Shown: positions 1 to 42,444, numbered from the stretch's first letter. The stretch: 42,444 nucleotides of DNA from a virus (IMGVR_UViG_3300028602_000031); one strand, 5' to 3'. A program made the numbers and translations. Notes: a model not told the origin generated them from the letters alone.

Positions 1-1014
1 GTGGGAAATACATACACCACCAAATCGACTTCTTATACTGCCTCTGCTGCACCTATTCATGTTCTGCCCGCCCTCTCAGATGGAGCAATATACAGAATTG
101 AAGAAATCCATGCGAAATTAAGAAACGAGCACTCCGGCACGGTAACATATATGAAAGTTACTATGAAGACTGGAACCGGGGCTGAGGTTACCCTGGCAGA
201 GTGGACTACTTCTTCTAATTCCTTTGTTTCAAAATCGGCAGTAATCTCGAAGGAATCAGCTACAGGGCAGCCCCTAACGTTCAGGTATTATATGAGATCC
301 GGTTCAGCGAGCTATAAGGCAGTTGCTACTGAAATAGGATACAAGATAACGGAAATGACTGCGGGCGTGGTGACATCAAGCAATGTCTACATGTGGAACA
401 CGGCAGATACAACTCAGGTAATGGATTGCTGTGACACGCTTCTTCCAAAATACAGGATGGAGATAAACTCCGATGGAAGCGGTAGCCTTACCTATGCAGA
501 AGATTTCCTTGATTCAAATTATACAATTACGCTTGCTGCATCTTCAGGGGTTACATACAATTCCACAAACAAGTCTATTGTTATCGCTTCAGGCGGGTAT
601 ATAACATTCGCTATGCCATGTAAATATCCGGTAACAGGTGTTCCGTACCTGAAAGCCTACGTTTTTTCAGGTGCTCCCCAAATATCAATTGCTGAAACGC
701 TCAGTGGCACATATTACGCCATCGATGGTAATCAAACAGCAGAAACCACCGGAGCGGAAATAAACAGACTGCTGGAAAATGAAAATAGTTTGGAACTGGC
801 TAACAAAACTGCATTTTATGTGAAGATCGCTCCTGATACTGGAAATAGCTGTGAATTTGGGAAATTGAAACTTTCTGCTGCACTCTCAACGATTGACGCT
901 GAACGGTTTAAAATTTATGCTACGAAAAAGGCGAATACGATAGGAATTCAGGTTTCCGGAAAATCGTCATTGATTGCAACTTTAAGGTACAGAGATTTAG
1001 ACCCTGCGACGTGA
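1..1014 (+). CDS. Putative virion/tail structural protein (probably 5'-truncated by the window)
   Basis: 337 aa, Ser/Thr/Ala-rich and beta-strand-like; directly upstream of the baseplate hub-like gene. Confidence 0.4.
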   Translation: MGNTYTTKSTSYTASAAPIHVLPALSDGAIYRIEEIHAKLRNEHSGTVTYMKVTMKTGTGAEVTLAEWTTSSNSFVSKSAVISKESATGQPLTFRYYMRSGSASYKAVATEIGYKITEMTAGVVTSSNVYMWNTADTTQVMDCCDTLLPKYRMEINSDGSGSLTYAEDFLDSNYTITLAASSGVTYNSTNKSIVIASGGYITFAMPCKYPVTGVPYLKAYVFSGAPQISIAETLSGTYYAIDGNQTAETTGAEINRLLENENSLELANKTAFYVKIAPDTGNSCEFGKLKLSAALSTIDAERFKIYATKKANTIGIQVSGKSSLIATLRYRDLDPAT

Positions 1015-1018
1015 TAAC

Positions 1019-2191
1019 ATGATCCGAATAGTGAACATCCGGCTAGTGGTTGAAAAACCTTCTACCCATGCAAAATATTACCCACAGGTTATCTCTGCAT
1101 CTACTCAGCAGAGTTATCCGTTTTCGGTTTCCGGAGCAGAAATAAACGTAGTCTCGAATAATTCTCCTTCCAGTTCCGGATATGCTTCCCCAATAAATTT
1201 TGACGATATAATCAGGTTGCAAGTCTCCGTAAAAATGGATAAAAACGAAAAAACAGTATGGCAAGATCTGTTTCATGGGAGGATAGAAAACCTTTCATCT
1301 GAATTTGGAACAGGAAACCAGTTAAAAATTTATGCCGTTGGACACGAAGCAGAACTTAAAACTGATCTGATCTCAGAGGCAAAAGAATATACAACATCTA
1401 CAGACGCAAAAATTCTATTATCCTATTTCTCTAGATATTTCAATAGATTAACATATTTAGATTCGAGAGCTTCAACCGGAGTGAGTTTCCCGACTTATGA
1501 TTCAAATGCAGACCAGATGTACTTGTCGGACCTTATAGGCGACATGGAGACAAATAGCGGGGGAAAGTGGATTTTTGAGGTAATCCCTACTTATGATAGT
1601 AGTAAAAATCTGAGTACCAGATATGTTTCCTGGAGACAATTTGTTACAGCAGGATCTTTTACAGCTACTCCTGTAAAATCGTACAAGGTTATAGAAGGAA
1701 CTCGGAGGCTTATAGCTGCCGATTTTGATGTAGAAGGAGAAGGTGTATTTACTTTTCACAGAGTTTATGGAGCTACATCAGACGGAGGATTACAATATAA
1801 AGGATCTGCCGTAGATGCTGCACTATTGGCACTATACGGAAGGAGGAGCACTGTAGATACTTACCCCTGGATCAAATCGAATAGTTTATGTGATTCGGTA
1901 GCAACAGGGTTACTAAGCTCTGAAAAAGATCCAGAAACTTCGGGGCAGGTATTGTTAATAGGGACTCCCCAGGCGAAACTCGGAGATTATGTTTATGTAA
2001 AAATACCATCTGAAGAGATTAATGGTGCTTCTATCCTTGGATATTTTTATGTCAAGAGGGTTCAGCATATGATTGATAGAGGAAAATTTCATACAAGGCT
2101 GGACTTTGGAAAAGTAAAAAAAGAAGCAGAGGACTATATAGCGAAGGTATCTGCAACAACGAAATTATGCAAAAAAAGTTTAGTGAAGTGA
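1019..2191 (+). CDS. Putative tail/baseplate hub protein (gpD/gp27-like)
   Basis: 390 aa; LFHGRIENL...IYAVG and C-terminal GTPQAKLGDYVYVKIP...YFYVKRVQHMID patterns resemble phage late-control D/hub proteins. Confidence 0.5.
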   Translation: MIRIVNIRLVVEKPSTHAKYYPQVISASTQQSYPFSVSGAEINVVSNNSPSSSGYASPINFDDIIRLQVSVKMDKNEKTVWQDLFHGRIENLSSEFGTGNQLKIYAVGHEAELKTDLISEAKEYTTSTDAKILLSYFSRYFNRLTYLDSRASTGVSFPTYDSNADQMYLSDLIGDMETNSGGKWIFEVIPTYDSSKNLSTRYVSWRQFVTAGSFTATPVKSYKVIEGTRRLIAADFDVEGEGVFTFHRVYGATSDGGLQYKGSAVDAALLALYGRRSTVDTYPWIKSNSLCDSVATGLLSSEKDPETSGQVLLIGTPQAKLGDYVYVKIPSEEINGASILGYFYVKRVQHMIDRGKFHTRLDFGKVKKEAEDYIAKVSATTKLCKKSLVK

Positions 2192-2285
2192 ACTTGATTT
2201 CTTAATTCTGTGCGCTTGATGAGCTATTGGATACACACACTGAAACTCTGTGTCCGTTGTTAATAGTTCTTCTGGGAAGTCTTCT

Positions 2286-2735
2286 TCAATCCCAATAACC
2301 GTCATAATTTTCCCTCCGTATAACAGGTGTAAAAAAGAAGTCGTGTGCCTGTTTCAATTCATCCATTAATATCCTCTGCATTCTGTGATTATTATCTTTC
2401 CCTGCCCTTCTAACCTCAAGAACGAAATTGACAAGAATTTCATTTGTTTCAAGTTTGCGAAGTTCTTCTTCAGACATTCTTATGAACTTCGGGAAATCTC
2501 CCATCTGTTCTCTTGTAAGAGTGAGCAGTTTATTTTCTCTCACGTCTTCTTGTTTTACCCATTCGTCAACATAAAAAACGTAATCAGTGCAGCACGTAGC
2601 TTTATGCCATAACTCATTCTTTTTCTCGCGGATTTCGTATATTTTTTTATTCAATTTTGACAGTTCTTCGTTTAGTTCTGCTTCTTTAGAGTCAAGTTCT
2701 TTCCATTCTTTGTTTAACTCCTCAAGATCAATCAC
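2286..2735 (-). CDS. Hypothetical protein with N-terminal coiled coil
   Basis: 149 aa ORF; GTG start overlaps the upstream TGA; heptad-like E/K/L pattern. Confidence 0.6.
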   Translation of the reverse strand: MIDLEELNKEWKELDSKEAELNEELSKLNKKIYEIREKKNELWHKATCCTDYVFYVDEWVKQEDVRENKLLTLTREQMGDFPKFIRMSEEELRKLETNEILVNFVLEVRRAGKDNNHRMQRILMDELKQAHDFFFTPVIRRENYDGYWD

Positions 2736-3064
2736 CTTACCATCTCCATTATTTTCTTAGCTTCTTTGTATCTCCTTGCAAAAAGATCTCTGACCATCTC
2801 AAGAGCTTCCGGCTCGTCTTTTCCTGTGCCGTATAATTCAAATTCATCATTTGACAGGGCTACAAACTCTCCGTATTCTGATTTCGTTAGTTTGAGAGGG
2901 GCTTTTAACTTTATTGTTTCTCCTTGAAAATCGAAATCTTTTAGTTCAAATGTGCAGGCATTATTTGAGAGTTTTTGATATGCTTCACTCATGATACCAT
3001 CTACTGTTTTTTCGATTATTTGATACATATCAGATTTATTCATTTCTTTATCTCCTGAATTCAT
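2732..3064 (-). CDS. Hypothetical protein, possible HicB-like fold
   Basis: C-terminal FELYGTGKDEPEALEMVRDLF resembles the HicB G-x-T/D-x-x-EAL motif. Confidence 0.35.
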   Translation of the reverse strand: MNSGDKEMNKSDMYQIIEKTVDGIMSEAYQKLSNNACTFELKDFDFQGETIKLKAPLKLTKSEYGEFVALSNDEFELYGTGKDEPEALEMVRDLFARRYKEAKKIMEMVR

Positions 3065-3303
3065 GTTAATTTATATTTTGCATCTGATATTCTGTCCCAT
3101 GCTCTATCCAGCATGTCAAGTGTTTCAAGAGCAGCAATAGTTACATTGACATCATTGTTAGCGATTACAGAATTAGCAAGAACTATTTCCATTTCAGCAC
3201 GTCTTGATTTAATTGAGTTGATGGCTTTTGTATACAAATCTATTTTTTCCAAACGCTGTTCCGGAAATATATACGATTCCGGTATATTGAAAGATTTTTG
3301 CAT
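3061..3303 (-). CDS. Hypothetical protein
   Basis: 80 aa ORF, translationally coupled to its neighbour. Confidence 0.55.
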   Translation of the reverse strand: MQKSFNIPESYIFPEQRLEKIDLYTKAINSIKSRRAEMEIVLANSVIANNDVNVTIAALETLDMLDRAWDRISDAKYKLT

Positions 3304-3503
3304 GTTTCATTCCTCGTTATCTCTTATTTCTCTGAATTTGTCCCTCATATGGCATCTGGTACATTCATCATCTGCTATGTAAAATTGTGATACATAATGA
3401 AAACATCAAGAACGAATTTTGGCGCGTTAATCAGTTTCACCTCCGTATTAGAGGATGAACGAACTTGCTTAAAAACGTTACTTTACTTCAGGATACCTCT
3501 CCT

Positions 3504-3695
3504 TTAATGTCTTCCATCGTCCTCAATTAATTCCCAAACAATCTTAACCTTACTATCCTCATGTGTAACATTATCTACTTTTCCGCATACAGTACAAGTA
3601 ACCCTTAGACCTTCTGCACCATCTCCATACTCGTACTTTGCTAGCCTCCATGTGTTATAATGACACGCGGGGCAATCTATCGGAGTATCGTCCAT
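3504..3695 (-). CDS. Small zinc-ribbon protein
   Basis: CPAC...CTVCG motif pair. Confidence 0.6.
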   Translation of the reverse strand: MDDTPIDCPACHYNTWRLAKYEYGDGAEGLRVTCTVCGKVDNVTHEDSKVKIVWELIEDDGRH

Positions 3696-3699
3696 TGTT

Positions 3700-4101
3700 T
3701 TACCACCTTCCGAGATTATCTATCGAGTCGCCTATATACTTTCCTTCTCGATACATTGGATACATTGAACTTGTCAGGAAATGCCAGTATTGGAAGCTAG
3801 ATACCAACATACTGTCCCTTTTAGCTACCTTTCCAGTTTTTGAATGATACATCAATCCTGTGTCTCCATTCTGTTTATACTGTTTTATTGCAGTTTTCAC
3901 TAAGCGGTTCATGTTTCCTACAGATACATATTCTATTGGTATGTTGCCTTCTAAGAATTCCATAGTTTCATTCTCCTTTCTTTTCTCTAATTTGTCAATT
4001 TTATCGCTGTATCGCATCGTCTTGCAGAATTCAAGTTCTTCTTCTGGAAGTTCAGGCATTATTACTCGATTTTCCCCGTCATAACAAGCATTGCATACCA
4101 C
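3700..4101 (-). CDS. Hypothetical protein
   Basis: 133 aa ORF within a tightly packed leftward operon. Confidence 0.55.
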   Translation of the reverse strand: MVCNACYDGENRVIMPELPEEELEFCKTMRYSDKIDKLEKRKENETMEFLEGNIPIEYVSVGNMNRLVKTAIKQYKQNGDTGLMYHSKTGKVAKRDSMLVSSFQYWHFLTSSMYPMYREGKYIGDSIDNLGRW

Positions 4102-4295
4102 ATACTCGCCTCGGCGTAGATCCGTGTTCTTGTTTCTTTATTAATGGAGTCTTCAGTGAACATGCAGGCGTGTAATAATCTTACAAGCCTCGCTTCCTGT
4201 TCTTCCTGAGACATTGCAAGCAGTTTTTGTTTTGTTTGCAGTAGTTCTTTTTCAAGAGATGCATCTTCGGAGTCTGTTATTGTGGTCGGGTTCAT
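4062..4295 (-). CDS. Hypothetical protein
   Basis: Start re-called to ATG 4295 (MNPTT), which overlaps the upstream TGA and follows a GAGAGG SD. Confidence 0.55.
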   Translation of the reverse strand: MNPTTITDSEDASLEKELLQTKQKLLAMSQEEQEARLVRLLHACMFTEDSINKETRTRIYAEASMWYAMLVMTGKIE

Positions 4296-4537
4296 TTTAA
4301 TTCCTCTCTTTCTTCCATATACCTTATAATTCCTGTAAGCCCTACGTAGAAATCTACTCTCCCGCATTTTACACAATATGAAATTCCATTCCTGCTATTA
4401 CTCCATACATGGCAGGTTCTAAGTGGAATATGGCAGAGTAGAGGTTTCTTTTGAGATCTAAGTTTCAAAACTTCATCTTTATCTTCAGGATACATAAGGA
4501 AGTGTATTTTTTCAAGTGTTGGCTGTGGTGTTGGCAT
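4292..4537 (-). CDS. Hypothetical protein with CxxC/CHVW motif
   Basis: 81 aa ORF; GGAG SD followed by AACCACC-ATG. Confidence 0.55.
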   Translation of the reverse strand: MPTPQPTLEKIHFLMYPEDKDEVLKLRSQKKPLLCHIPLRTCHVWSNSRNGISYCVKCGRVDFYVGLTGIIRYMEEREELK

Positions 4538-4711
4538 GGTGGTTAACTCCGCTTTACATTCTCAAAGATTCGGACTCTTGAGCAGCTTATAATATTCACA
4601 TATTTCAGAATAAGACGCACGACGATAACAATTTCCAGTGTGACTGATATATAATATGCCATCTTCTTGGAGGTACTGCACTCCATTTATGGTATTAGTC
4701 ATCTCAATCAT

Positions 4712-5419
4712 TTATTTTTCCACCAACCTGAAACCCCATGATGTTAATTGTCTCTTAATGTCCCTTACTTCATCATCTGAGAAAGCCAATCCTTGATAGT
4801 GTTTCATCGAAGTAAGAGCATCATGCCCTTGTCGAATGCAACAGGTTGATTCTGTTATACCTCCTGCAATCATCCATGATTCAATAGTTTTCCTTGTGGT
4901 CTTTGCTGAGACTCCATAAGGACTTATACCTGCATCTACAGACCATCTCTGAAGATTCTTGTTCCATGTAGATTCTAACGGAGGTTTCTTATCCATCCAG
5001 AAGGCGTTTAAGACCTCTCCAAACATAGACGGTAGTGGATGTATAGTCCTTTCAACTTGTTTCCTCTTGTGCTTTCTCTGAGCTTCCTCTGGAAGGTGAA
5101 TTAAGTTCTTCTTCTCGTTGTACCATTCTTTGTTTTCGTAGAGTCGTAACATCTCAATATACCGCATTCCTGTTACAAGCAGTATGTCAAGGACTCTCTT
5201 GTGGCGTTTCATAGGGATAACGTCTTTGAATACTTCATATTCTTTTACAGTGAAGATTCGGATATCCTTCACATAGAGATGAAGGGAATCCATATCTTTT
5301 GTGAAAGAAGATTTTGGATATTTAGGAGTGTAAACTTTAGGTTGTGTTGCTCTTGCTTTCCGCTTTCGGAACCTTTCCAGGCATTTTTGTTCTTCTGTGG
5401 TTAAGTCTGGTTTTGTCAA
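4712..5419 (-). CDS. int: Tyrosine recombinase/integrase (short, essentially catalytic domain only; KxxR variant)
   Basis: Motifs in order: LVTGMRY (Arg I), SAKTTRK (KxxR in place of HxxR), RQGH, MKHY (catalytic Tyr). Confidence 0.8.
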   Translation of the reverse strand: MTKPDLTTEEQKCLERFRKRKARATQPKVYTPKYPKSSFTKDMDSLHLYVKDIRIFTVKEYEVFKDVIPMKRHKRVLDILLVTGMRYIEMLRLYENKEWYNEKKNLIHLPEEAQRKHKRKQVERTIHPLPSMFGEVLNAFWMDKKPPLESTWNKNLQRWSVDAGISPYGVSAKTTRKTIESWMIAGGITESTCCIRQGHDALTSMKHYQGLAFSDDEVRDIKRQLTSWGFRLVEK

Positions 5420-5426
5420 GTCTTAT

Positions 5427-5837
5427 TCACCATTTCCCTATATCTTGATACACCCAAGCAGGACTATACATATCAACCTCTTCATACGGTTCATCATTAA
5501 ATTCGGCATCTGCCTGTTCATAATCAAATCCACACTCAGAGATAACCTTGTTAAGATCTGCGTACCCATTCGGATCTTGGATATAAATATTGCATTTATG
5601 ACAATACCAATATCCTGAATTCTTTATTGTGTCCCCACAGTAATCCAGCTTCGTTTCACACTTTGGGCATTTGTCCTCAGTCTCATATGGATTGCCTTCA
5701 TGAAGTGGACACTGTTTTAGATAGCAAATCGCTTCATTATGTAAATGGCAATGATCTATGTATACATCAGAGCCGTGATCATCATCACAGAAATAATCAC
5801 ATTTTCCGTCTTTGAAATGTTCGCAAGGAGATTTCAC
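5427..5837 (-). CDS. Cys/His-rich zinc-binding hypothetical protein
   Basis: Several C/H clusters, including CPKC...CHKC. Confidence 0.55.
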   Translation of the reverse strand: MKSPCEHFKDGKCDYFCDDDHGSDVYIDHCHLHNEAICYLKQCPLHEGNPYETEDKCPKCETKLDYCGDTIKNSGYWYCHKCNIYIQDPNGYADLNKVISECGFDYEQADAEFNDEPYEEVDMYSPAWVYQDIGKW

Positions 5838-6358
5838 ATCCTCACCTTACCAGTTTTTGAACCGTAATCTTCGAGCAGTTCTTTTTTGTACTCCTCCCAG
5901 GTCGTATCCGTGTAACACATATACAATTTCCAGGGTTCTCCAAAAATCTTGTTAAAACTTGATTCTATTGCTTCTATTACTTCATAGACTGAATCAAACC
6001 TCCGCGTTCTTTCGCCTCTCTTAACTTCCGTTATTCTTTTCCCAAAGTTTTCACTGTAAATCGGCTTATCTGCCTGTTTAGTTATTTCAATTACATATGA
6101 ATCAGATTCATGTGGCTGTATATTGGTCCAAAACTTCTCTTTCCCATCGCTATCAATTACTACACATGACAACGAGGGAACTTCAAACGATGCATAAAAG
6201 TGAGATGCGTAACCCACTATTCCAGCGTATGTTGTAATTCTAACTCCTACATCCATCTCAGTTCGGTGTAGAGTTATACACTGTTTTCCGTTGTGTTCAA
6301 ATTCTATTCCTGCACCTTTATGTGGATCAATTTTTTCAGTGATTTCATAATCCTTCAT
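5834..6358 (-). CDS. Hypothetical protein
   Basis: 174 aa ORF with AGGAG SD and an upstream TTTAAATA TATA box (about 6425-6432, minus strand). Confidence 0.65.
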   Translation of the reverse strand: MKDYEITEKIDPHKGAGIEFEHNGKQCITLHRTEMDVGVRITTYAGIVGYASHFYASFEVPSLSCVVIDSDGKEKFWTNIQPHESDSYVIEITKQADKPIYSENFGKRITEVKRGERTRRFDSVYEVIEAIESSFNKIFGEPWKLYMCYTDTTWEEYKKELLEDYGSKTGKVRM

Positions 6359-6562
6359 ATTTATGTTCTCCTTTACTTAATCCCTCAATTCTAACTTCTT
6401 GCTATACTATACAATACACAGCAAATATTTAAACCTATTCATTTGATGAGCATAAGCTAAGATTTCACTCAAAATAGCGGTAAATGTACTTGATACACAC
6501 AGCTTTTATCGTAAAAACTATGCAATGACGTTCTGTTTTTATTTTAAAGATAATATCTTCAA

Positions 6563-6590
6563 TAAAGTACTTATGTGATTAAGTACTTTA
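6563..6590. promoter_or_regulatory. Palindromic operator candidate between divergent genes
   Basis: Perfect 11 bp inverted repeat TAAAGTACTTA-N6-TAAGTACTTTA. Confidence 0.55.
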
Positions 6591-6629
6591 ACAGTATAGC
6601 AATGAAACCATTAAGTGAGGTATCAGGTA

Positions 6630-6848
6630 ATGTATATTTCTCCAAAACAAAAGAAAGTTGTAGAACAGATTAAACAACTCATGGAATGGAAAGAGACTAA
6701 AGACCGAAATGTTGCATTTATTCAGGCAGAAATACCAAATTTAACTATGCACACGATAGATGCGCTCAAAGAGAAAGGATTCATTGACGAATCAGAGAAT
6801 CCTTTTGGAATCAAAGTTTATAAGTGGACAGGAAAGGAGATTGAGTAA
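6630..6848 (+). CDS. Small winged-helix-like protein
   Basis: SPKQKKVV...TIDALKEKGFID...WTGK; similar to ORFs 10768-10983 and 20785-21204; ATG 6630 follows GAGGT. Confidence 0.55.
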   Translation: MYISPKQKKVVEQIKQLMEWKETKDRNVAFIQAEIPNLTMHTIDALKEKGFIDESENPFGIKVYKWTGKEIE

Positions 6849-6849
6849 C

Positions 6850-7122
6850 ATGGAAAATAAAGTAGAAATTTCAGAAGAAGATTGTTGTGATCTTGCAGCA
6901 CACATCCTAAACATGAGCGATAACACGGATGATGAAATTATATGGTTAGAACTTGATCATGTGTATGGGATAGAGCCTCCTGAATTTATTGAACTGATAA
7001 GAAAACTTGTTCCTCTCGTTGATGTTGGTAAATCTATTTTAACGGGAGCAAATAGTAAGGGCTTTGCTGAAAGAATCCCAGGTACGGATATATTAGTATG
7101 GTTTGCGAGAATGGAAATTTAA
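6850..7122 (+). CDS. Hypothetical acidic protein
   Basis: ATG 6850 lies just after the upstream TAA; 90 aa. Confidence 0.6.
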   Translation: MENKVEISEEDCCDLAAHILNMSDNTDDEIIWLELDHVYGIEPPEFIELIRKLVPLVDVGKSILTGANSKGFAERIPGTDILVWFARMEI

Positions 7123-7159
7123 CGCATCAGCAGTTGTTTCAGATGCATTAGATGAAAAA

Positions 7160-7330
7160 CTGAAAGAGGAAGGATAGTGACTACTCCCATCACTGAAGTG
7201 ACGGGCATCTTCCGATTTTACGGTCAGATTGTAATCCCAATCTGAGAATATTAATTGAAGCATTAAGATCACGGTCAATAGACAGACCACAGAAAGGACA
7301 GTTATGAGTTCTTTCTGATAGGTCTTTTTC
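7160..7330 (-). ncRNA. Predicted TnpB omega/reRNA (scaffold overlapping the tnpB 3' end, plus flank-derived guide TATCCTTCCTCTTTCAG)
   Basis: Known architecture of IS200/IS605 right ends; 5' boundary is a guess. Confidence 0.55.
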
Positions 7331-8411
7331 TACCAACATCCCACAACTTGAACACATTTTTGAGGTATTCTTAGGATCAACAAGAACCACTTTTCTACCA
7401 GCATTTTCAGCTTTGTAGGAAGTATAAGTTACAAGTTTACTCCAAGCTGCATCAAGAATGTGCTTTGCAAGATTGTGATTTTTTGTCATGTTCTTAATGT
7501 TAAGATCTTCAAAACAGATTATACCGTAATTATTAATGAGTTCTTTACTGAATTTTTGAGTAAAATCTTCTCTCTTGTTAGCAATCCTTTCATAGGCTCT
7601 ACACAACGTTTTAAGGCATTTCTGTCTTTCAGGAGTACCTTTTTCGGCTTTAGAAAGTTTTCTGTTAGCTCTTGCAAGTGCCTTTTCTTCTTGAATATAG
7701 AATCTAGGATTGGGAACATAAGTTCCATTCGATAATGTAGCAAAGGAGAGGATTCCAACATCAATACCTACTGACTTATCAGAAGGTTGAAGTGGTTGAT
7801 AAGTTTCAGCATCAGTAAGTATTGAAACAAACCATTTACCAGTTGAAGTTTTCCTGATAGTTAAGCGTTTAATATTTCCTTCAAGTGGTCTATGCAATTT
7901 TATTTTTATATCTCCGATTTTGGAGAGAGTTAACATATTGCTATTTAAGGAAAAACCAGATTGCAAGTAGGTAATACTGTCATACCAACCTTTACCTTTA
8001 AAACGGGGGTATCCTGCTTTTTCTCCGGCTTTAACTCTACGGAAAAAAGCTTGAAAAGCAAGATCAACGCGCATAGTCACATCTTGAAGTGTATGAGAAT
8101 GAACGGTTTTCAATTCTGGTTTATCTTTCTTCCAGATAGGAATCATCTTTTTAGAATCATAATAACTGATTCTTTTCTGTTCAGATTCCCATGCATTCTT
8201 TCTTAGTGCTAGAGTTTCATTATAGACCCATCTACAGAGTTCCAAAGTAGAGTTAAGCTTTGTAACTTGTGATTTTGTTGGATAGATTCTATAACGATTC
8301 ACTTTAGGCATAATAAATAATATAGTCATTTTACCTAAATAAAGGTTACTATATTGAAGTTGACGGCTGTATCCCGCCATTAAAATGACGGGGATTAGCC
8401 TTAGACGCTAC
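7177..8411 (-). mobile_element. IS200/IS605-family non-autonomous element (tnpB only)
   Basis: Right end with hairpin CCCATCAC-TGAA-GTGACGGG (7186-7205), ending ...GTAGTCAC on the minus strand; imperfect left-end hairpin 8371-8395; no tnpA; left boundary approximate. Confidence 0.85.
7190..8311 (-). CDS. tnpB: RNA-guided endonuclease TnpB
   Basis: N-terminal YRIYPTKSQ HTH; RuvC I GIDVG, RuvC II FEDL, CSSC...CPFC zinc finger, RuvC III DRDLNA all intact; start re-called to ATG 8311. Confidence 0.95.
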   Translation of the reverse strand: MPKVNRYRIYPTKSQVTKLNSTLELCRWVYNETLALRKNAWESEQKRISYYDSKKMIPIWKKDKPELKTVHSHTLQDVTMRVDLAFQAFFRRVKAGEKAGYPRFKGKGWYDSITYLQSGFSLNSNMLTLSKIGDIKIKLHRPLEGNIKRLTIRKTSTGKWFVSILTDAETYQPLQPSDKSVGIDVGILSFATLSNGTYVPNPRFYIQEEKALARANRKLSKAEKGTPERQKCLKTLCRAYERIANKREDFTQKFSKELINNYGIICFEDLNIKNMTKNHNLAKHILDAAWSKLVTYTSYKAENAGRKVVLVDPKNTSKMCSSCGMLVEKDLSERTHNCPFCGLSIDRDLNASINILRLGLQSDRKIGRCPSLQ

Positions 8412-8415
8412 TAAA

Positions 8416-9135
8416 TTATTCCGAACTCTCTTTCTCGTTAATCCCTATCCACTTAACTAACTAACATTCATCATGCAATCCAAACCACTGTGGATAAACA
8501 GTATTCGCATCTTCAAGGTAATCGAGAACTTCTATCCCGTTAAAAAAATCATCACTTGCAGTACAACCACCGCTTCCTTCTCCAATATACAAGATCTTTC
8601 CTTCCGGATTCAATTCTGTGAAAAGTTCCGCAGCTTCCCTAGCCATCGGAGATTCGTACATTGCCCAACATGTAAGCAGAAAATCGGCTTTGTATTTACG
8701 AATAGCACCCCTGAAATCAAGGTTTTCAACTGGATAATATGATTTCCAATGAAAACTATCTTTTTTATGCCATGAATAATCATCCGTTGATATTATATTG
8801 ACTCCAGCTTCATGGAGGTACTTTGCTACAAGTCCTGTACCGGCTCCTACTTCAAGAACTGTTTTATCTCCGATGACTTGTTTCATTGCTCTAGCCCATT
8901 CTAAAGTAGGAGTCACAAAACCAATAACGGATCTTGCAACACTGAAATATGAGAAAGCGTCCCGACGCCTAAGTAATTTTGTATCCACACTCTCAACAAG
9001 CCTTTCATTAAGATGGAAATATAGGAATGATTTAATTTCGTTAGAATTTGCCTCGAATGAATTATATGTATGTGGATATGTATGTGAATATCCATCGAAC
9101 TGATCCCATGCTTTTTTAATTTCAGTAAAGGTCAT
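8416..9135 (-). CDS. Class I SAM-dependent methyltransferase with a probable in-frame amber (TAG 8461-8463) read-through
   Basis: VLEVGAGTG motif I, TDDYSW, YIGEGSGGCTA; past the TAG the frame continues LVKWIGINEKESSE to TAA 8416-8418. Confidence 0.7.
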
Positions 9136-9137
9136 CC

Positions 9138-9593
9138 TTATTCGCCCCGCTTTACCCATTTGTCTTTCTTCCAATCAAAATGATGTTTTGTATCCATCAA
9201 GAATTCTAACCACAAACATTCCATGCTCTTGTTTTTGTACCATTTATAACCTCTCTCTTTTACATATGCAGTGAACTCTATCAGTATAAAAACATTCGAA
9301 GAATCACTTTCTTTTCGTATGGCGAGAGATTGAAGTTGTTTTTGATTTGGAAGAGGTCGCAACGTTTCTAAATTCTCTAAATAGGTATAACCAACTTCTC
9401 CAATGAATTTGGCGTGTATTATTCTGGGGTCACTCCATACATCAAACTCAACTACCATCAGTTCTTTTTCCCTTTTTAGAGAGAATGCTTTATCTCCAGC
9501 TTTCCATTCCCAATTTTCAAAGAAATTAGATGGGAGTGCGAGGATCATCTTTTTATAAAGTTCGTTCATAAAAATCACCAATTTGTTTCCCAA
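9138..9593 (-). CDS. Hypothetical protein
   Basis: 151 aa ORF in the operon; LRPLPNQKQLQ...CLWLEFLM pattern. Confidence 0.6.
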   Translation of the reverse strand: MGNKLVIFMNELYKKMILALPSNFFENWEWKAGDKAFSLKREKELMVVEFDVWSDPRIIHAKFIGEVGYTYLENLETLRPLPNQKQLQSLAIRKESDSSNVFILIEFTAYVKERGYKWYKNKSMECLWLEFLMDTKHHFDWKKDKWVKRGE

Positions 9594-10501: not shown

Positions 10502-10700
10502 TCTCCTTCTTTAACACAATCATTATTGCCGTACATCCTGCACCTTTCTTTACTTTTGAAAAGACTCCTTCAACGTCAGACAGTTTCCCCACTTGAACCG
10601 TAAGCACTGCGTCAGTAGGGTATTTTAGTAATCCCCCGCTAGAAGGAATTACGATTTCTTTACCAGAATCTAAAAGCATTTCTTTTGATTTACGTTCCAT
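10494..10700 (-). CDS. Hypothetical protein
   Basis: 68 aa ORF; TTATTTATAC TATA box upstream (about 10722-10731, minus strand). Confidence 0.55.
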   Translation of the reverse strand: MERKSKEMLLDSGKEIVIPSSGGLLKYPTDAVLTVQVGKLSDVEGVFSKVKKGAGCTAIMIVLKKESE

Positions 10701-10767
10701 ACCAAGTAATTACGCACCATAGTATAAATAACTTGTGCCGTATAAAGTAAATAAAAAAAGTAAATTG

Positions 10768-10983
10768 TTAAAATTTCTTTCCCGTATATTGCCAATACTG
10801 CACTTCATCGTCAGCTTCTGAGAATTTGGTATTAAGAAATCCTTTGTCTACAAGTGCTTTCAAGGTAGTTGGAAAAACATGCTTAATTTCGCATTCAGTA
10901 AACCATCTTTTTGGATACGATTGATTTAGCTTGAAAATTCTTAACAATGCTGTTTTCTATGCTCTTGACAATCTCCCTTCCAT
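10768..10983 (-). CDS. Small winged-helix-like protein with in-frame TAG at codon 9 (recoded gene or pseudogene)
   Basis: Manual translation MEGRLSRA*KTALLRIFKLNQSYPKRWFTECEIKHVFPTTLKALVDKGFLNTKFSEADDEVQYWQYTGKKF; aligns with 6630-6848; GAGGA SD; absent from the ORF track. Confidence 0.6.
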
Positions 10984-11298
10984 GCAAGATTCCTCTGTTG
11001 AAGGAATTCCGTTGTCATCGTACATCAATTTACGCTTCTGTGTTTCCTTGACATCCCAAACACCAAGACTTCTTAACATCTTCCAGGTAACAATTACTTA
11101 AAAATCGCATTTCGGTTTGGAGAAAGAGTAACACATTTAATATATTTATAATTCAGCATTTTAAAAAAAGTTTATATATTAAGAACAACTTGGTAATATA
11201 AGATCAGTATCACTTTTTCTGAAAAACGGGGCATATATAAAGCGGGACTGAGAAAAAACGGCTCTTGTATGCGAACAAAGAAAAACGGATAAGAAGGA

Positions 11299-11396: not shown

Positions 11397-11413
11397 ACAA
11401 GAGGTACAATAAC

Positions 11414-11965: not shown

Positions 11966-11969
11966 GTGA

Positions 11970-12185: not shown

Positions 12186-12187
12186 CG

Positions 12188-13408
12188 TTAAGCCTCCGGA
12201 TAGAAAGTTTCTTGGATGTCCTTCATTTCGTCTGGAGTCTCGGGTAAGGACAAAGAAGCCTCCATCAAACGTTCCATAGCTTTTACAGGATCAGCACCGT
12301 TCCTCGAAGCGAGTAGTTTCTGGACATTGGCTTTGAGATCCCTGTACCCACCACGATATTCAAGATTGGCTATATAATATGTTTTCTTAGTGCCCCTCTG
12401 TGGACCGGATGGAATTGTTTTTTCAAGTGGTGATAATGTAAGCCATAACGGAAGTTCTGCAACGTGACCACTTGCATATCCTGTAAGAAGAGATACAGCA
12501 GCATCAAGATAACTGATTGAACTATTGCTCGTTGTCCTGAATTTCCATATTACTCCACATCTGGGGGCATCTTCGAGAATTACTGACAGAACGCCGTGTT
12601 TTTTACATTCGCCTTTTAGGTAATGTTCGCATCTTTCACCATTGCATTCAATCAGATCACCTTCAAATGTCTCTGCTGAAAACCCATCTCCTCTACATTC
12701 ACACTTTGAAGCTTTGTACTTCCCATAGAATGATACAAAATTCAGATCTTCCCTATCACATGGGAGTCTAACCTTCAGACGTTTTGGTTCAGGACCAACA
12801 ACATTGTGGATTTCCTGGTCAAGTTCATACCCTAACTTATTTTTTGCCTTGGTTGTTATTCTGAAATATTCAGTAGCTCTCGGAAGAACTTTCCCATTCT
12901 TCTCGTATTTTTCCCCTGCTCGGATAGTGCCAACTTCCATAAGTTCAGGCTTTAAGTTTTTGATCCTGCGCCCTGGTCTTGGGAGAGGAACTTTCTTTTG
13001 TTCTCCTACTTCTTCATATGCGATTTCTCTGATTTCTGAATAATCATACTCGTCAGAGAATACATTTACTTCTTCCGGAACATCTTCAATTTCTTCCTTT
13101 ATTTTGTTGTAGCCACCCTTTTTAAACCCGTTATGGGGTTCTTCAACCTGATCAAAATCAAGCACGTCGAGGGTTGCTTTCCTGTAAGCGGCTATAAACT
13201 TATCGGCTGATGATTTCGCATGAACGTCTACGGAAGTGTCTTCAAGGGAGATCCTACGTTCTCCGTTCAGGAAGAACCATTCTTCGGGCTTCGTGTCAGT
13301 GTTTATTTCAAGTTCAAAGCCATGTCCAGCAGGCATTATAGATATATTTGCGTCATTTGTGTCTTTGATATTCCAATCTTTTTTAAGGGTTTCAATTATT
13401 CCTGTCAT
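12188..13408 (-). CDS. phiC31 gp3-like (recombination directionality factor-like) protein with acidic N-terminal extension
   Basis: VGTIRAGEKYEKNGKVLPRATEYFRITT, CRGDG, WKFRTTS and SGPQRGTKKTYY match my recollection of the gp3-like family; ATG 13408 follows GAGGT. Confidence 0.6.
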   Translation of the reverse strand: MTGIIETLKKDWNIKDTNDANISIMPAGHGFELEINTDTKPEEWFFLNGERRISLEDTSVDVHAKSSADKFIAAYRKATLDVLDFDQVEEPHNGFKKGGYNKIKEEIEDVPEEVNVFSDEYDYSEIREIAYEEVGEQKKVPLPRPGRRIKNLKPELMEVGTIRAGEKYEKNGKVLPRATEYFRITTKAKNKLGYELDQEIHNVVGPEPKRLKVRLPCDREDLNFVSFYGKYKASKCECRGDGFSAETFEGDLIECNGERCEHYLKGECKKHGVLSVILEDAPRCGVIWKFRTTSNSSISYLDAAVSLLTGYASGHVAELPLWLTLSPLEKTIPSGPQRGTKKTYYIANLEYRGGYRDLKANVQKLLASRNGADPVKAMERLMEASLSLPETPDEMKDIQETFYPEA

Positions 13409-13464
13409 GTTTTCATACCTCTTGGTGTGTGGTTTTATAAAAATTAAATGAGTGTTATAATATT

Positions 13465-15434: not shown

Positions 15435-15438
15435 GATG

Positions 15439-16812: not shown

Positions 16813-16950
16813 ATGAACACCACAAGAGTAGAACCTTTTTTCAAAGAAGTTGCTCACAGAGCAGTAGTGAATTATCACAGGTTCCCATCATATTTTAACA
16901 CTGATTCTTTTGAAGGGAACTTACAGATGCTTGTTTGTGAGGCGGTATAA
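16813..16950 (+). CDS. Hypothetical protein
   Basis: ATG 16813 follows the CACCACACACCAAGAGGT leader. Confidence 0.5.
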   Translation: MNTTRVEPFFKEVAHRAVVNYHRFPSYFNTDSFEGNLQMLVCEAV

Positions 16951-31652: not shown

Positions 31653-33393
31653 TATCTCACCATCGGGGAATTTTGTTACTTCAGATCACATAAAAAATCA
31701 TATAAAAAATAACCTGCTTGAACTTAGACAAGATGAAGCAGAAGACGAGATTTTAAAGATATGCGACAAGTCGAATATAAAAGGAGATGCAAAGAAATTA
31801 CTTCTCAGGTTTTATAAAGCAGAGAAAAAACAGCACGATACAGAAATAAAGAAAATTGAGCAGTCTTCGGAAGAAAAGCCCGATCTAAAAAGCATATACT
31901 CGGAAATCATAACGGCTGAAGACACGACAACTCAGTTAAAACAATTAAAAGAGCACATTTCATCTGATTGGATGGAAGTAAGAGAAGACGAAGCTCTCAT
32001 GTTTATAAAGGAAATATGCGAGGCATTCGGATTCGATCACGAAATAAAAGGAATATTAAAGAAATTTTATAAAGCTGAAAAAGCTTCTTATGAGGAAATT
32101 AAATCAAAACAGCCAGTGCAAGAGGAAGACGACCCCTTAAACATAGACTTTGATGAGCAGGACATAAGCCAGGAATTAAAGGATAAAGCCGACAAGATTG
32201 CAGAACGGATTCTGAAGCAGGGTGAACCAATTAAATACATATTAAACACGATAAAAAAGAAGCACGTCGGCGACGAAAACACCGAAGAGGGCATGTGTGT
32301 TTCTATTGCAGGTCAATGTTGTCTTAACACCGCAGGCATACAGATAGTTGTAAATGGTGAGAGTGGAAGTGGAAAAAGTGACGGCACAAAGAAGCACCTG
32401 CACTTAGTACCTCGGAAATGGAAGCGGTCTACAAGCCTTTCCGCGAAGGCTCTTTATTACATGGATCTGAAAGCAGGGATGTTAATTTTCTCAGATGATG
32501 TTAATATGGACCCAGAACTTGAAGAAGTTTTCAAGCAGTCTACAACAAATTACCAGGAATATACATTCAGAACCACCGTAAAAGACCAGGAAAGACATAC
32601 CATCTCGATCCCACCTAGAATTAATCTTTTCCTTACATGTGTTCGGTCTGACGTATCTGATCAGACTTTGAACAGGCAACTCGTATTTGAGACAGACGAT
32701 GGACCAGAGCAGAAAAGGAAAATATTCGAGTTGCAGAGAAAGCTAGAAGCAGATGGGATAAACCCTTTAGAAGTCACGTTTCGGGTACTCGTATGCAGGA
32801 GAATATATGCTAAACTCAAAGAAAATTTATTCAACGTGCGGATTCCATACGCTGACCGTATAGACATCCTAGACAAGAGCAATAGCCGTGTGTTTCCCCT
32901 GCTATGTGATATGATAAAAGGATATACGATTTTTAAATGGAAGCAGAGAAAAATAGACGAGAACGGAAACCTACTAGCTGAAATTGAAGATTTTGAGCGA
33001 GCAAAACGCCTGTTCAATTCCAGAGTAGAAAGCACTGTCACCAAGCTAACAAAAGTTGAGAATGCAATAATAATGGATATAATTGCTAACCAAGATAAAA
33101 ATAAAGGGATTGGCTGTAGTATAAACGAAATTGCGACACGTACCGGACTCAAATATCATAACGTAGACAGGGTAATAAAGGGAAGGAAGGACAGGGACGA
33201 CGGCGGGCTTCTTGCAAAAATGAAGGGATTCAAGAAAGAGGACATGACTGTTACCGAGTATTGCCGAGATGGAGACAGAGTAATGGAAACGAAAGGGCGC
33301 AAGTCCGAAAGATTCAGAATTGAAAATTGTAACATCTGGGAGATGTTTAACCAGGATTTTATTAATCTGTTGCCAGAAGAAGATAAAAAGTGA
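31642..33393 (+). CDS. Primase-associated P-loop NTPase/replicative helicase
   Basis: Walker A GESGSGKS, Walker B-like LIFSDD, C-terminal wHTH-like segment; overlaps the prim-pol gene. Confidence 0.7.
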   Translation: MVVDISPSGNFVTSDHIKNHIKNNLLELRQDEAEDEILKICDKSNIKGDAKKLLLRFYKAEKKQHDTEIKKIEQSSEEKPDLKSIYSEIITAEDTTTQLKQLKEHISSDWMEVREDEALMFIKEICEAFGFDHEIKGILKKFYKAEKASYEEIKSKQPVQEEDDPLNIDFDEQDISQELKDKADKIAERILKQGEPIKYILNTIKKKHVGDENTEEGMCVSIAGQCCLNTAGIQIVVNGESGSGKSDGTKKHLHLVPRKWKRSTSLSAKALYYMDLKAGMLIFSDDVNMDPELEEVFKQSTTNYQEYTFRTTVKDQERHTISIPPRINLFLTCVRSDVSDQTLNRQLVFETDDGPEQKRKIFELQRKLEADGINPLEVTFRVLVCRRIYAKLKENLFNVRIPYADRIDILDKSNSRVFPLLCDMIKGYTIFKWKQRKIDENGNLLAEIEDFERAKRLFNSRVESTVTKLTKVENAIIMDIIANQDKNKGIGCSINEIATRTGLKYHNVDRVIKGRKDRDDGGLLAKMKGFKKEDMTVTEYCRDGDRVMETKGRKSERFRIENCNIWEMFNQDFINLLPEEDKK

Positions 33394-34110: not shown

Positions 34111-34719
34111 TAATTATCAATAGACATCATGCAATAATTATTTATTATTATAGGTATTTAATAATAAGATGCATAACCACCGAGACACCACACAGCAGAC
34201 TCTTGTATTTTGGTCGAAAACAGGAACTCAAATACCTACTTTTGTTATAGTTGCAAATGCTGAAGGAATCATAAAAATAAATGAGGATGTTAGTATATAA
34301 ACGAACGGATTTTGAGTATTTAAAGTGTTAGAGGAAAAACGTTATCAGTTGGATAGTATCTTTATGATACTATGTGGAAATAGTTAATTTAGAAAGGTAT
34401 AGACTATACACTGTCTAAACTTATCTTTCCCGTTCTCTAGTAATTTCTAACTCTAACATGACTTTTAAGGCACTTTAGAAGCTCACTATTAAACTTTTAT
34501 AACGATTTGGTACGTTTACATAGACAAAAATAAAAACTTAACTACAGAGCTTAGATTATCTTTGGTGCTATTTCAAAATAATTTGAAATGACCGATTTAA
34601 CCTATATGAAAGTAATATACGATACACCAAATAGCAACCTTTATATATATGGTGTACTATATAGTATATTGTAGCAGGATAATGTTGTCCTGACTCAAAA
34701 GATCAAAAGAAAAAGGAGA

Positions 34720-35187
34720 TTGAAAACTATGGGACTTGACATGGATTTAATTAAACGTTATTACATTGGTGCAGAATATGAACATAACAAAATAACTGGT
34801 GTATGTGATATTTTTTCAAATGGAGAACGGCTAGATATTGATTTTAGGCATATACAGTACATCGAAACAGGTTGTATCTACTGGAGGAAGGCGAATATGA
34901 TCCATAAATGGTTCGTGGATCACTGTCAGGATGGGGAAGACGACTGTAAGCCTTATTATGTGAGTTCAAAACAGCTATGTGAGCTTCTTAATGCATGTCT
35001 AAATATAAAATCAAATCCTGAATTGGCAAGAGAGATTCTGCCTACTCAGGAAGGGTTCTTCTTTGGAGGAACAGACTACGATGAGGATTATTTTTCCGAC
35101 ATAGAAGACACGATAAAAAAACTGAGTATGCTTAATCTCATGGGAGAGGATTATAGTTTTGACTACTACTATCAGTCGTCTTGGTAA
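34720..35187 (+). CDS. Conserved phage hypothetical protein
   Basis: MGLDM...YWRKANMIHKWFV...LPTQEGFFFG...YYQSSW pattern of a widespread phage family; TTG start after AGGAG. Confidence 0.7.
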   Translation: MKTMGLDMDLIKRYYIGAEYEHNKITGVCDIFSNGERLDIDFRHIQYIETGCIYWRKANMIHKWFVDHCQDGEDDCKPYYVSSKQLCELLNACLNIKSNPELAREILPTQEGFFFGGTDYDEDYFSDIEDTIKKLSMLNLMGEDYSFDYYYQSSW

Positions 35188-36631: not shown

Positions 36632-37146
36632 ACTTGCTGACCTAATAACGTATTAATAGAGTATCGTTGTCATTGAATCAATTGAGTTAGGCTGCATGGT
36701 ATAGGCTGCTAACATAGAATATGATCGTGAACCAAGAACATTTAAGAAAATATCCAGTAGGAAAGTGACATGTACGATATATGACGCTGTGCAAATTAGT
36801 AATCATGAAAATCAATAACAGTACAATTTATCTGAAGTGAACTTAATTTCAAAATCAAAGTCAGGTAAATTTATCCTGAGACCCCTGGATTATAATATTT
36901 TAACCTGAAATTATTCTCAATTTTCCTCAAATTTTTCCGGAAATTCCCCGAAAATCTCCGAAATTTCCCCTGGAATTTTCCACTACTCGCGCTTTTTCCC
37001 CTTCGGTTTTTTACGGTCCGTGTTTTTTGCGCCACGAATCCCGGCGTACCTGGCATTTGTGCAGCGAGTATTTTTGATCACATTTTTCAACAGTGTAAAT
37101 ATATTCAAGATTTTTATGATAACTCATGTTTTTTATTATTCGGTTC

Positions 37147-37190
37147 AAATAGTTAACTATAAATAGAATAAGTGATTAATTAAAGAATAA
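37147..37190 (+). repeat. Repeated early promoter E with palindrome ATAGTTAACTAT
   Basis: AAATAGTTAACTATAAATAG...TTAATTAAAGAATAAC; shared with 37631 and 38065. Confidence 0.75.
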
Positions 37191-38065: not shown

Positions 38066-38134
38066 AATAGTTAACTATAAATAGAATAAGGTATTAATTA
38101 AAGAATAACAAAATAAAGGAGATGAAAAGAAATG
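38065..38134 (+). repeat. Repeated promoter/leader G
   Basis: Copy of F directly upstream of ardC. Confidence 0.8.
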
Positions 38135-39064
38135 AGCAATAAAGTATATGATATAATAACTGAGCGGATTATTTCACAGTTAGAAGCGGGTGTTATCCCT
38201 TGGAGGAAACCTTGGGGAATTGCTGGAAATGGTGAAATGCCTAAAAATGGAATAACTGGCAGACATTATTCAGGAATAAACCTATTAATGTTAAATTGGG
38301 GGGAAGAATATTTCACTTTCAAACAGATACAGGAAAAGAAATGGACTATAAAAAAAGGTTCAAAGGCTTCTATTGTGATCTTTTTCTCTATGCTGGAAAA
38401 GCCAAACAAAAACAATTCTGAAGAAATTGATCAGATACCTCTAATGAGATACTATAATGTTTTTGCTGGCTCAGATATTGAGGGATACAAAGAAGGGGAA
38501 AAATACGAACACAATACCATAGAAGAAGCTGAAGAAATTGTCCGGAAATATCAGGAAGTACCTATACACCATCACAATAATAATAGAGCTTTTTACAGTC
38601 CTACGGAGGATTATATTAATGTTCCTGACTTGTCATGTTTCCCAATCGCTGAAGAGTATTACAGTACTCTTTTTCATGAAATGACTCACAGTACAGGACA
38701 CCACTCTCGATTAAAGAGATTTACCGGAAATGCTGCTAATGCTTCCTTTGGTTCTAAATCCTATTCTTTTGAGGAATTGATAGCCGAACTTGGGGCATCT
38801 TTCCTTTGTGGTGTCTGTGGAATTGAACAGAAAACCCTGGATAATTCAGCTTCCTATATCGCATCCTGGCTAAAAGTTCTTAAGGAAGATAATAAATTTA
38901 TTGTTCGCGCCGCCGCGAGAGCTCAGAAAGCAGTAGATTACATTCAAGAAGGTTCTACTGTTCATAAAAATAAAATCCAGAATGCAAATAAACCTAATGA
39001 TACCAAGCCCAGATCTAAAAAAACCCCTCATTTTAATAAAAGCGGGGAGTGGATAGGAAATTAA
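38132..39064 (+). CDS. ardC: ArdC-family antirestriction ssDNA-binding protein (DUF1738 plus zincin domain)
   Basis: PWRKPW, YSGINLLML, FKQI, YYNVF, AFYSP..D.I..P, HEMTHSTGH, YSFEELIAELG, SASYIASW. Confidence 0.9.
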   Translation: MSNKVYDIITERIISQLEAGVIPWRKPWGIAGNGEMPKNGITGRHYSGINLLMLNWGEEYFTFKQIQEKKWTIKKGSKASIVIFFSMLEKPNKNNSEEIDQIPLMRYYNVFAGSDIEGYKEGEKYEHNTIEEAEEIVRKYQEVPIHHHNNNRAFYSPTEDYINVPDLSCFPIAEEYYSTLFHEMTHSTGHHSRLKRFTGNAANASFGSKSYSFEELIAELGASFLCGVCGIEQKTLDNSASYIASWLKVLKEDNKFIVRAAARAQKAVDYIQEGSTVHKNKIQNANKPNDTKPRSKKTPHFNKSGEWIGN

Positions 39065-41250: not shown

Positions 41251-41423
41251 CTGAAGTCCCCTTTAACATTCGTTTCCAAACAAAAGAACATGCTTTAAGA
41301 TACGCAAGACTTGAAGCATCTAAATTTAAAAGAAATGTAGGGTACAAAGCTGTAAAAGGTAGATATTGGTCTATGGATCTAATGGACTACGTTTCCACAT
41401 GGATTGCAATTCTAATATTCTAA
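41247..41423 (+). CDS. Hypothetical protein (not in ORF track)
   Basis: 58 aa MTEVPFNIRF...; ATGA overlap with the upstream stop. Confidence 0.45.
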   Translation: MTEVPFNIRFQTKEHALRYARLEASKFKRNVGYKAVKGRYWSMDLMDYVSTWIAILIF

Positions 41424-41460
41424 TTTTCTTTTTCTTTTCTTTATTCCTTTACATACCTTT

Positions 41461-41823
41461 ATCATATCTCTTCTATCAATACATTCCTATCTAACTAATA
41501 CGTTCTCATTACCTTCTATCTAATCTCTTCTCACATCAATTCTAAATCACCCATATTATAAAAATTTCTGCAATAAAAAAAACCTGGAAAAAAATCCAGG
41601 AAAAAATACAGAAAAAAATATACAGCTTTTTTATTACATGCCCTAACTCATACTATCTTGATCAAGGCCCTGACTTACATCTACCTTCTATATCCTGTAA
41701 TCAATGCCCTGACTCATACTATCCTTATACTCTTATGATCTTTGATTACAGCCTTTCTATTCAATCTTTATCTTATCTCTCAACACTTGTATTGTATCTA
41801 GCTAATCTCTTCTCATATCAATT
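41461..41823. repeat. AT-rich, strand-skewed non-coding region with degenerate direct repeats
   Basis: CTAATCTCTTCTCA(C/T)ATCAATT at 41520 and 41802; ATGCCCT(A/G)ACTCATACTATC at 41638 and 41704. Confidence 0.65.
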
Positions 41824-42267
41824 GTAATACATTCATTATATACTATTGTTTATATTATAATCAATCTTTAACTTATATATACTTGATTATATACAATTAA
41901 GCTAAGTACAAACCCAATCCGGTGTTTCTATAAAAAGTGAGCAGGGCATCCTTATCATATGCCTCAAACTAAAAATATTTCCAAACATTATAAATAAAAT
42001 ATACATGTTACTACTCAATACCGTTTTTTATACACCGCAAACTCAATTTTACTCATTACTTATTTAATTATTTAAAGAAGAATACAACAAAACCCAAAGG
42101 TTTTAAAAGGAAATCGCTATGCCAAACTCAATATCAAAAATTTTAAAAAACAAAAATACCACTAAACAGTAAAAATATAAAAATAAAGTATTATTAAAGA
42201 GTAGTTTTCCGATAAATATAAGCCCGCTCACCAACTGCAATACCAGCAGTGCAATCTGCATCCTTGA

Positions 42268-42444
42268 GTCAATGACCCCCCACTGAAGTAGGGGGCTTGT
42301 AACTAACTTACGTTGTTACGTTTGGTTGATTGACAGACAACCTACTCAGGCAAGATATACCCGCCTGAGCAATGTTTTGAGAGGCATTAAGGTCACTATG
42401 CAACTGAAAACCACAAGCTTTACAATGGTAAGAATTGCCTTTCC
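42268..42444 (-). mobile_element. Right end of a second IS200/IS605 tnpB element (runs off the window)
   Basis: Terminal hairpin CCCCC-CACTGAAGTA-GGGGG (42276-42295), ending ...CATTGAC on the minus strand. Confidence 0.8.
42308..42444 (-). CDS. tnpB: TnpB C-terminus (partial, not in ORF track)
   Basis: Manual translation KGNSYHCKACGFQLHSDLNASQNIAQAGISCLSRLSVNQPNVTT-stop: zinc finger half plus RuvC III Asp. Confidence 0.85.
   Translation of the reverse strand, partial: KGNSYHCKACGFQLHSDLNASQNIAQAGISCLSRLSVNQPNVTT

Follow-up and report, generated by a model that had tools for sequence, protein, structure and literature searches.

Does a virus that infects a pyrrolysine (Pyl)-decoding archaeon adopt its host's way of using TAG, and what becomes of TAG codons that arise inside its genes? 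The question is raised by IMGVR_UViG_3300028602_000031, a contig of 42,444 bp with a guanine-plus-cytosine (GC) content of 37%. The contig, one whole database entry and hereafter the window, represents part of the genome of a mobile element that resembles a virus, probably a tailed one, and replicates in Methanosarcinaceae. An earlier note, made from the sequence alone, had proposed that the virus behaves as if UAG were a sense codon, that it is adapted to an amber-decoding host, and that it encodes Pyl-containing proteins. We find that TAG stops are avoided in the element no less strictly than in its host, and that two of its genes are interrupted by an in-frame TAG. We consider it likely that TAG-minimised coding is common to the element and its host, and that the two TAGs are recent amber mutations tolerated through partial reading of UAG as Pyl.

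Stop-Codon Use in the Window

The gene set was built greedily from strand-consistent open reading frames (ORFs) of at least 40 aa, chosen by strand block. It holds 83 ORFs, which cover 83% of the window; 50 end in TAA, 29 in TGA, and four in TAG (Table 1). Two of the four TAG ends precede the in-frame TAGs described below, and the other two belong to junk ORFs. Thus, no credible gene natively stops on TAG (0 of ~80 genes), as the earlier note had said. The spurious end of one junk ORF is accounted for by a palindrome, TAGTTAACTA, at 37140-37165.

The triplet itself is available. Of the stop triplets that lie in off-frames of the coding strand, 18% are TAG, and the share on the antisense strand is 23%. 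At a background of 0.198, the chance of at most one TAG stop in 83 is P = 2e-7, and at a rate of 0.10 it is P = 0.0016.

Avoidance of TAG as a stop is one matter, and use of TAG as a sense codon is another. ARAGORN finds 0 tRNAs in the window, Rfam gives 0 hits, and no pyl gene was found there, the radical SAM protein at 18039-18863 failing to match PylB; in this the earlier note was right. Only two in-frame TAGs occur among ~12,200 codons; a sense reading of TAG lengthens the coding sequence by 81–177 nt, or 0.2–0.4%. TAG is thus not a regular sense codon here.

Could the virus carry a recoding of its own, of the code 15 type, such that the missing part of the genome holds a suppressor tRNA and late genes rich in TAG? 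Most structural genes are absent from the contig, which is incomplete, and the early genes of recoded phages likewise avoid the recoded stop. Set against these points are the lack of any tRNA in 42 kb, two tail-like genes at 1-2191 that contain no TAG, and the small gain from a sense reading, where the criterion for a recoded virus is a gain in coding density of > 5–10%, as used in PMC13465236. That study screened 3,708 archaeal virus genomes for coding density and reported code 11 only (PMC13465236), and the window would also pass it as standard code. We regard recoding by the virus itself as extremely unlikely.

Three upstream extensions of ORFs through a TAG, at 34588-35187, 31570- and 19107-19553, were considered and rejected. 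In each, a plausible start follows the TAG, and the residues that would be gained seem non-coding.

The Host of the Element

A DNA search of 177 genomes, those of the family of Methanosarcina sp. DH2, links the element to one of them, G123, which has a 4.14-Mb chromosome (GC 41.7% in a 400-kb sample). Three protospacers in the window match spacers of G123 (Table 1). Two of the spacers are neighbours in L095, a clustered regularly interspaced short palindromic repeat (CRISPR) array with a 37-nt repeat in > 30 copies, and the third lies in a second array. G123 has a complete pylTSBCD in one cluster. Its tRNA-Pyl(CUA) is found by ARAGORN, and its PylS (743 bits), PylB (571), PylC (599), and PylD (395) all score far above the NCBIfam cut-offs. 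The earlier note had supposed an amber-decoding host, which could be sought through CRISPR spacers and pylTSBCD; both the spacers and the complete set of genes were found in G123.

Other relationships lie in the same family. The TnpB of an insertion sequence (IS) in the window shares 88–91% identity with its counterparts in Methanosarcina sp. DH2 and UBA5, and the thymidylate-synthase homolog is matched best by the methanogen-type model. The integrase-like gene and the primase region have DNA relatives of 64–72% identity in many Methanosarcinaceae genomes. For the integrase-like gene, relatives 65–74% identical are present in 47 of the 177 genomes. A gene pair at 30500-33050, a primase-polymerase (prim-pol) and a 583-aa protein, has relatives that are 64–70% identical in ~20 Methanosarcinaceae genomes; the best covers 869 nt at 69%, and one such locus is L129 (G115:C72). 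The latter matches suggest related integrated elements. Taken at the level of sequence, the evidence argues strongly for a host among the Methanosarcinaceae that has Pyl machinery.

A spacer of a further genome, G120, matches the window next to the terminal IS copy, and its target may be the IS instead of the virus. Matches of 31–36 nt to 23349-23384 in four genomes were considered as CRISPR spacers and rejected, as they were not spacers where checked (L097). Window k-mers are present in metagenomes from bioreactors, landfill, wastewater, sludge, and freshwater, in 11 studies; RNA-labelled runs contain only 5–7% of them.

Stop Use in the Host and in Other Viruses

By the same naive caller, TAG ends 16 of the 298 ORFs that reach 100 aa in the 400-kb sample of G123 (5.4%) and 7 of the 235 that reach 150 aa (3.0%). 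These values agree with the ~4–5% given for Methanosarcina (PMC4153887). The isolated Methanosarcina virus MetSV (MF186604) ends one of its 22 annotated genes in TAG. For comparison, TAG ends 6 of 31 annotated genes in psiM2, a virus of Methanothermobacter, and 4 of 39 in Drs3, a virus of Methanobacterium; the hosts of both are taken as non-Pyl from the list of Pyl-using lineages in PMC8211752. The window, counted as 1/83, differs from the two control viruses (10/70; Fisher p = 0.003).

These figures bear on the proposal that TAG stops are scarce through composition or chance, owing to low GC or to a general avoidance of TAG or CTAG, and that the scarcity has nothing to do with pyrrolysine. 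TAG is in fact moderately rare in all frames (435 on the plus strand versus 627 expected from dinucleotides), TAA is favoured at 37% GC, and TAG use, which spans 1–27% among archaea that encode Pyl, predicts Pyl poorly (PMC12626013). Yet TAG still supplies about a fifth of the out-of-frame stop triplets, its near absence from gene ends is improbable even at a rate of 0.10, and the two methanogen viruses of similar GC use TAG for 10–19% of their stops, whereas MetSV and the host stand at 3–5%. Composition or chance is thus a very unlikely explanation.

The Two Interrupted Genes

The first in-frame TAG is codon 238 of a gene for a protein resembling S-adenosylmethionine (SAM) methyltransferases. 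The frame continues past the TAG for 14 further codons and then ends at a TAA. An alignment of the window protein with 11 homologs of 46–91% identity shows that this tail holds a family motif, L-V-K-W-(I/V)-G, of which the Leu is invariant and the Trp and Gly are nearly invariant in the 12 sequences. In addition, the tail is identical to that of three variants. An AlphaFold2 model (predicted local distance difference test score, pLDDT, 89) places residue 238 in the middle of the last β strand, so that truncation at the TAG is predicted to remove part of the core sheet.

Among the close relatives of the methyltransferase, codon 238 is TGG (Trp) in 10/10 other distinct variants of the 90% cluster, which are 91–98% identical. 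Within the cluster, only the window's own protein (P0037) has a stop at the site. In more remote homologs, the site is occupied by S, T, Y, H, or W. The database version of the window protein is 232 aa long. In IMG/VR, the family is otherwise found in one 98-kb uncultivated virus genome (UViG), which shares nothing else with the window, and as a distant match, 33% identical, on a 244-kb contig.

The second TAG is codon 9 of a gene for a small winged helix-turn-helix (wHTH)-like protein. In other variants, the ORF is open from TTG 11079. The site is CAG (Gln) in 7/7 other database variants, six of them 92–98% identical, and a paralog in the window also has Gln at the matching position. Past the TAG, the frame is intact, and one residue differs from the variants. 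For both genes, then, the earlier note's observation of an internal TAG holds, and homologs support reading through it.

Origin of the Two TAGs

Since all ten methyltransferase variants have Trp and all seven wHTH variants have Gln, both TAGs are single-transition mutations (TGG to TAG and CAG to TAG), derived, recent, and private to this contig. A programmed Pyl site, as in MtmB, MtbB, or MttB, would keep its TAG at the same codon among relatives; here, 0/10 and 0/7 relatives do so. That Pyl-containing proteins are an adapted feature of the virus is not supported by this comparison.

The same comparison bears on a programmed switch, in which the in-frame TAGs would be kept so that the host's supply of Pyl sets the ratio of truncated to full-length product. 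In M. acetivorans, UAG has been shown experimentally to be ambiguous, read both as stop and as Pyl with no cis signal, and the extent of read-through is proposed to depend on Pyl supply relative to demand, hence on the growth substrate (PMC12626013). Moreover, the position of TAG 238 in a modelled core strand means that short and long forms of the methyltransferase should differ in function. A selected site should be conserved, however, and ordinary sense codons stand in all of the close relatives and a variety of residues in the distant methyltransferases. In addition, the published model estimates read-through ~two-fold higher on methanol than on trimethylamine (PMC12626013). Because the TAG sites are not conserved, a programmed switch is not supported, and we judge it most improbable; neither codon is a conserved, programmed Pyl site.

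The TAGs might instead have arisen as errors of sequencing or assembly, given that the contig is metagenomic. They occur in a single contig, whose 42,444 bp are entered three times, under JGI/IMG, ENA, and 'gem', and both changes are transitions of the C-to-T type. Two independent stop-creating errors in a consensus assembly are unlikely, though, and frames are intact in the rest of the contig. Error is, by our estimate, a poor candidate with little chance of being right.

The neighbourhood of the two codons is variable. An IS200/IS605-type element lies between convergent genes just beyond the methyltransferase stop, where it adjoins TTTAG; virus variants from three sequencing runs (X1, X3, X11) lack it. 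The segment 9135-11123 is a hypervariable accessory region: in contigs of other metagenomes, 9135 is joined to 10157, 9387 to 11128, or 10837 to 11123, with 285–1740 nt missing. The deletion of 10837-11123 takes away the 5′ part of the TAG-bearing wHTH gene.

This setting invites the view that the TAGs are plain inactivating mutations. The methyltransferase and wHTH genes would then be decaying accessory genes, and any read-through would be without function; the avoidance of TAG stops could still be linked to the host. Both TAGs are private to the contig, they lie at most 2.5 kb apart by a strain-specific IS insertion in a region prone to deletion, and that both are amber is unremarkable: by codon count, 50% of the possible transition nonsense mutations give TAG, so that the chance of two out of two is P = 0.25. 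The frames are nevertheless intact past both TAGs, with the unchanged methyltransferase tail and the single wHTH difference noted above, and no TAA, TGA, or frameshift lesion was noticed. Ambiguous decoding of UAG in the host (PMC12626013) also makes some full-length product likely, relevant or not. Simple decay is in our view unlikely, though it deserves to be taken seriously.

Probable Tolerance through Partial Pyl Decoding

The reading that we prefer, shared TAG-minimised coding with two tolerated amber mutations, can be set out as follows. In a host that expresses tRNA-Pyl(CUA) and PylRS, UAG is ambiguous, partly stop and partly pyrrolysine. It follows that a TAG stop would yield C-terminally extended products. 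Selection against leaky termination would then purge TAG from the gene ends of the element, as in the genome of the host. We infer Pyl decoding as the cause of the purge from the parallel with the host and from the control viruses. The two amber codons, for their part, would most likely give a mix of truncated and full-length, Pyl-carrying protein in such a host. Such mixed products could make the mutations tolerable, as proposed for singleton Pyl sites in cellular genes, which are thought to arise neutrally (bioRxiv 10.1101/2024.09.30.615893).

A wider proposal is that viruses of Pyl-decoding methanogens live within their hosts' TAG-minimised code, and that this strain makes a Pyl238 methyltransferase and a Pyl9 wHTH protein, the full-length share of each being set by Pyl supply and demand. 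We offer it tentatively, as somewhat less likely than not.

Several points weigh against the preferred reading. Two amber mutations are too few to show a tolerance specific to TAG. Both lie in an accessory hypervariable region by an IS insertion, where simple gene decay is plausible. The count of 0 in ~80 lies below the rate of the host itself, but weakly so (P = 0.017–0.038 at 5–4%). The comparison with other viruses draws on two controls, the Pyl status of whose hosts comes solely from the PMC8211752 list, and the contig lacks the structural module, so that stop counts cover the remaining part. Finally, translation of either TAG as Pyl is a prediction from the sequence and from the host's machinery.

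Relation to Known Systems

The closest likeness is to the genomes of Methanosarcina themselves (PMC4153887; PMC12626013). There, too, TAG is nearly absent as a terminator, and genes other than methyltransferases contain in-frame TAGs that are flanked by homology and need no cis element; the CRISPR-linked host of the element has pylTSBCD. Unlike those genomes, the window is part of a mobile element or virus; it is devoid of pyl genes, and the element depends wholly on its host. Its TAG stops are 0/~80, compared with 3–5% in the host sample.

The two TAGs resemble the singleton 'Category 1/2' TAG genes, and the Pyl in Thg1, described in bioRxiv 10.1101/2024.09.30.615893. These are lineage-private TAGs that replace ordinary residues (here Trp and Gln) with no obvious catalytic role. 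The internal TAG of the wHTH gene is like Category 1, and that of the methyltransferase, which gives a 15-residue extension, is Category 2 by length, although backed by homology. In contrast to the singleton genes, the polarity of change is resolved here at the strain level, by 10 + 7 sister variants with a sense codon.

MetSV shares with the window a Methanosarcina host and a scarcity of TAG stops, but its genome is an unrelated, tectivirus-like one of 10.6 kb, and no match was found among the window proteins searched. Code 15 phages (TAG = Gln), which have their own suppressor tRNAs, likewise leave TAG unused as a terminator. The window differs from them in having no suppressor tRNA, no gain in coding density, and only two in-frame TAGs, whose decoding would fall to the host.

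The analysis extends a property of Methanosarcina, few TAG stops with an ambiguous UAG, to an element that preys on Methanosarcina. The virus case is absent from both recent papers on the Pyl code: bioRxiv 10.1101/2024.09.30.615893 has 0 occurrences of 'virus' or 'viral', and viruses are not mentioned in PMC12626013 (a methanogen-virus compendium in Nat Microbiol, 2023, lies outside this comparison). The known Pyl proteins listed in a review are methylamine methyltransferases, some transposases, and Thg1. Gene callers that use code 11 shorten TAG-bearing genes, the stored window methyltransferase being an example. If the proposal is true, depletion of TAG stops could serve as a signal for host prediction in archaeal viruses. 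A caution also follows, as flanking homology does not suffice to mark an in-frame TAG as an adapted Pyl site; strain-level comparison here reveals fresh mutations.

The Contig and Its Gene Content

A terminal repeat was looked for in the window and not found. The left end of the contig lies within a gene, and the right end lies within the C-terminus of a second TnpB, that is, within an IS copy. Thus, the genome is incomplete, and most structural genes are missing. The second TnpB copy is probably the reason why the assembly broke at the right end. Genes are laid out in three strand blocks: plus at 1-2191, minus at 2286-16404, and plus from 16539 to the end.

Table 1. Features of the window, in order of position.
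Feature	Position	Strand	Remarks
Whole window	1..42444	.	Part of the genome of a virus-like mobile element that infects Methanosarcinaceae and is targeted by CRISPR
Two tail-like proteins	1-2191	+	Weak; phrog_400, 2e-6
Protospacer	312..346	.	34/35 identical to spacer of second G123 array, L144
Integrase-like protein	4712-5419	- block	Weak; phrog_1, 4e-8
Paralog of wHTH gene	6615..6848	+ (as given)	
IS200/IS605-type element	7175..8410	-	TnpB at 7190-8380; 5 nt past methyltransferase stop
SAM-methyltransferase-like gene	8416..9174	-	252 codons with read-through; native stop TAA 8416-8418
TAG-ending ORF 1	8461..9174	-	Methyltransferase portion before in-frame TAG
In-frame TAG	8461..8463	-	Codon 238; last β strand is residues 236-242 (model)
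TAG-ending ORF 3	10670..10795	-	41 aa; overlaps neighbours on both sides; spurious
Small wHTH-like gene	10768..10983	-	Likely start ATG 10983 behind AGAGGA
TAG-ending ORF 2	10957..11079	-	5′ piece of small wHTH gene
In-frame TAG	10957..10959	-	Codon 9 of small wHTH protein
Thymidylate-synthase homolog	within 12188-15060 / 17018-20785		Methanogen-type model is best match
Protospacer	13126..13162	.	37/37 identical to spacer of G123, array L095
Protospacer	16863..16898	.	32/36 identical to neighbouring spacer (one repeat unit away), G123 array L095
Radical SAM protein	18039-18863	+ block	No match to PylB
Prim-pol and 583-aa gene pair	30500-33050	+ block	
TAG-ending ORF 4	37020..37166	+	48 aa, hydrophobic; AT-rich spacer with palindrome; spurious
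ArdC-N and zincin metallopeptidase protein	38132-39064	+ block	Anti-restriction type; phrog_7245, 3e-77
Spacer match	42212..42242	.	31/31 to genome G120, array L145
Second TnpB, C-terminal end	42308..42442	-	Contig breaks within repeat; 81% identical to G123 DNA

Close relatives of the element as a whole did not appear in the collections searched. Protein patterns from 12188-13474 found none in IMG/VR, and GenBank phages gave no match by megablast of 22 kb of the window, nor with the 583-aa and 390-aa proteins. Among the 177 Methanosarcinaceae genomes, no provirus of the element was found with the 531-aa protein, the only query used.

Other recognised genes encode a helicase, an HNH protein, a Gp3-like protein, and a thymidylate-kinase-like protein. 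The last two, together with the thymidylate-synthase homolog, the radical SAM protein, and a 531-aa phrog_1735 protein, form a possible DNA-modification set in the segments 12188-15060 and 17018-20785. The best phage relatives of the 531-aa protein include SP-15, Xp12, and Salmonella and Klebsiella phages (35–48% identity). The anti-restriction protein near the right end, of the ArdC type, sits in an archaeal element.

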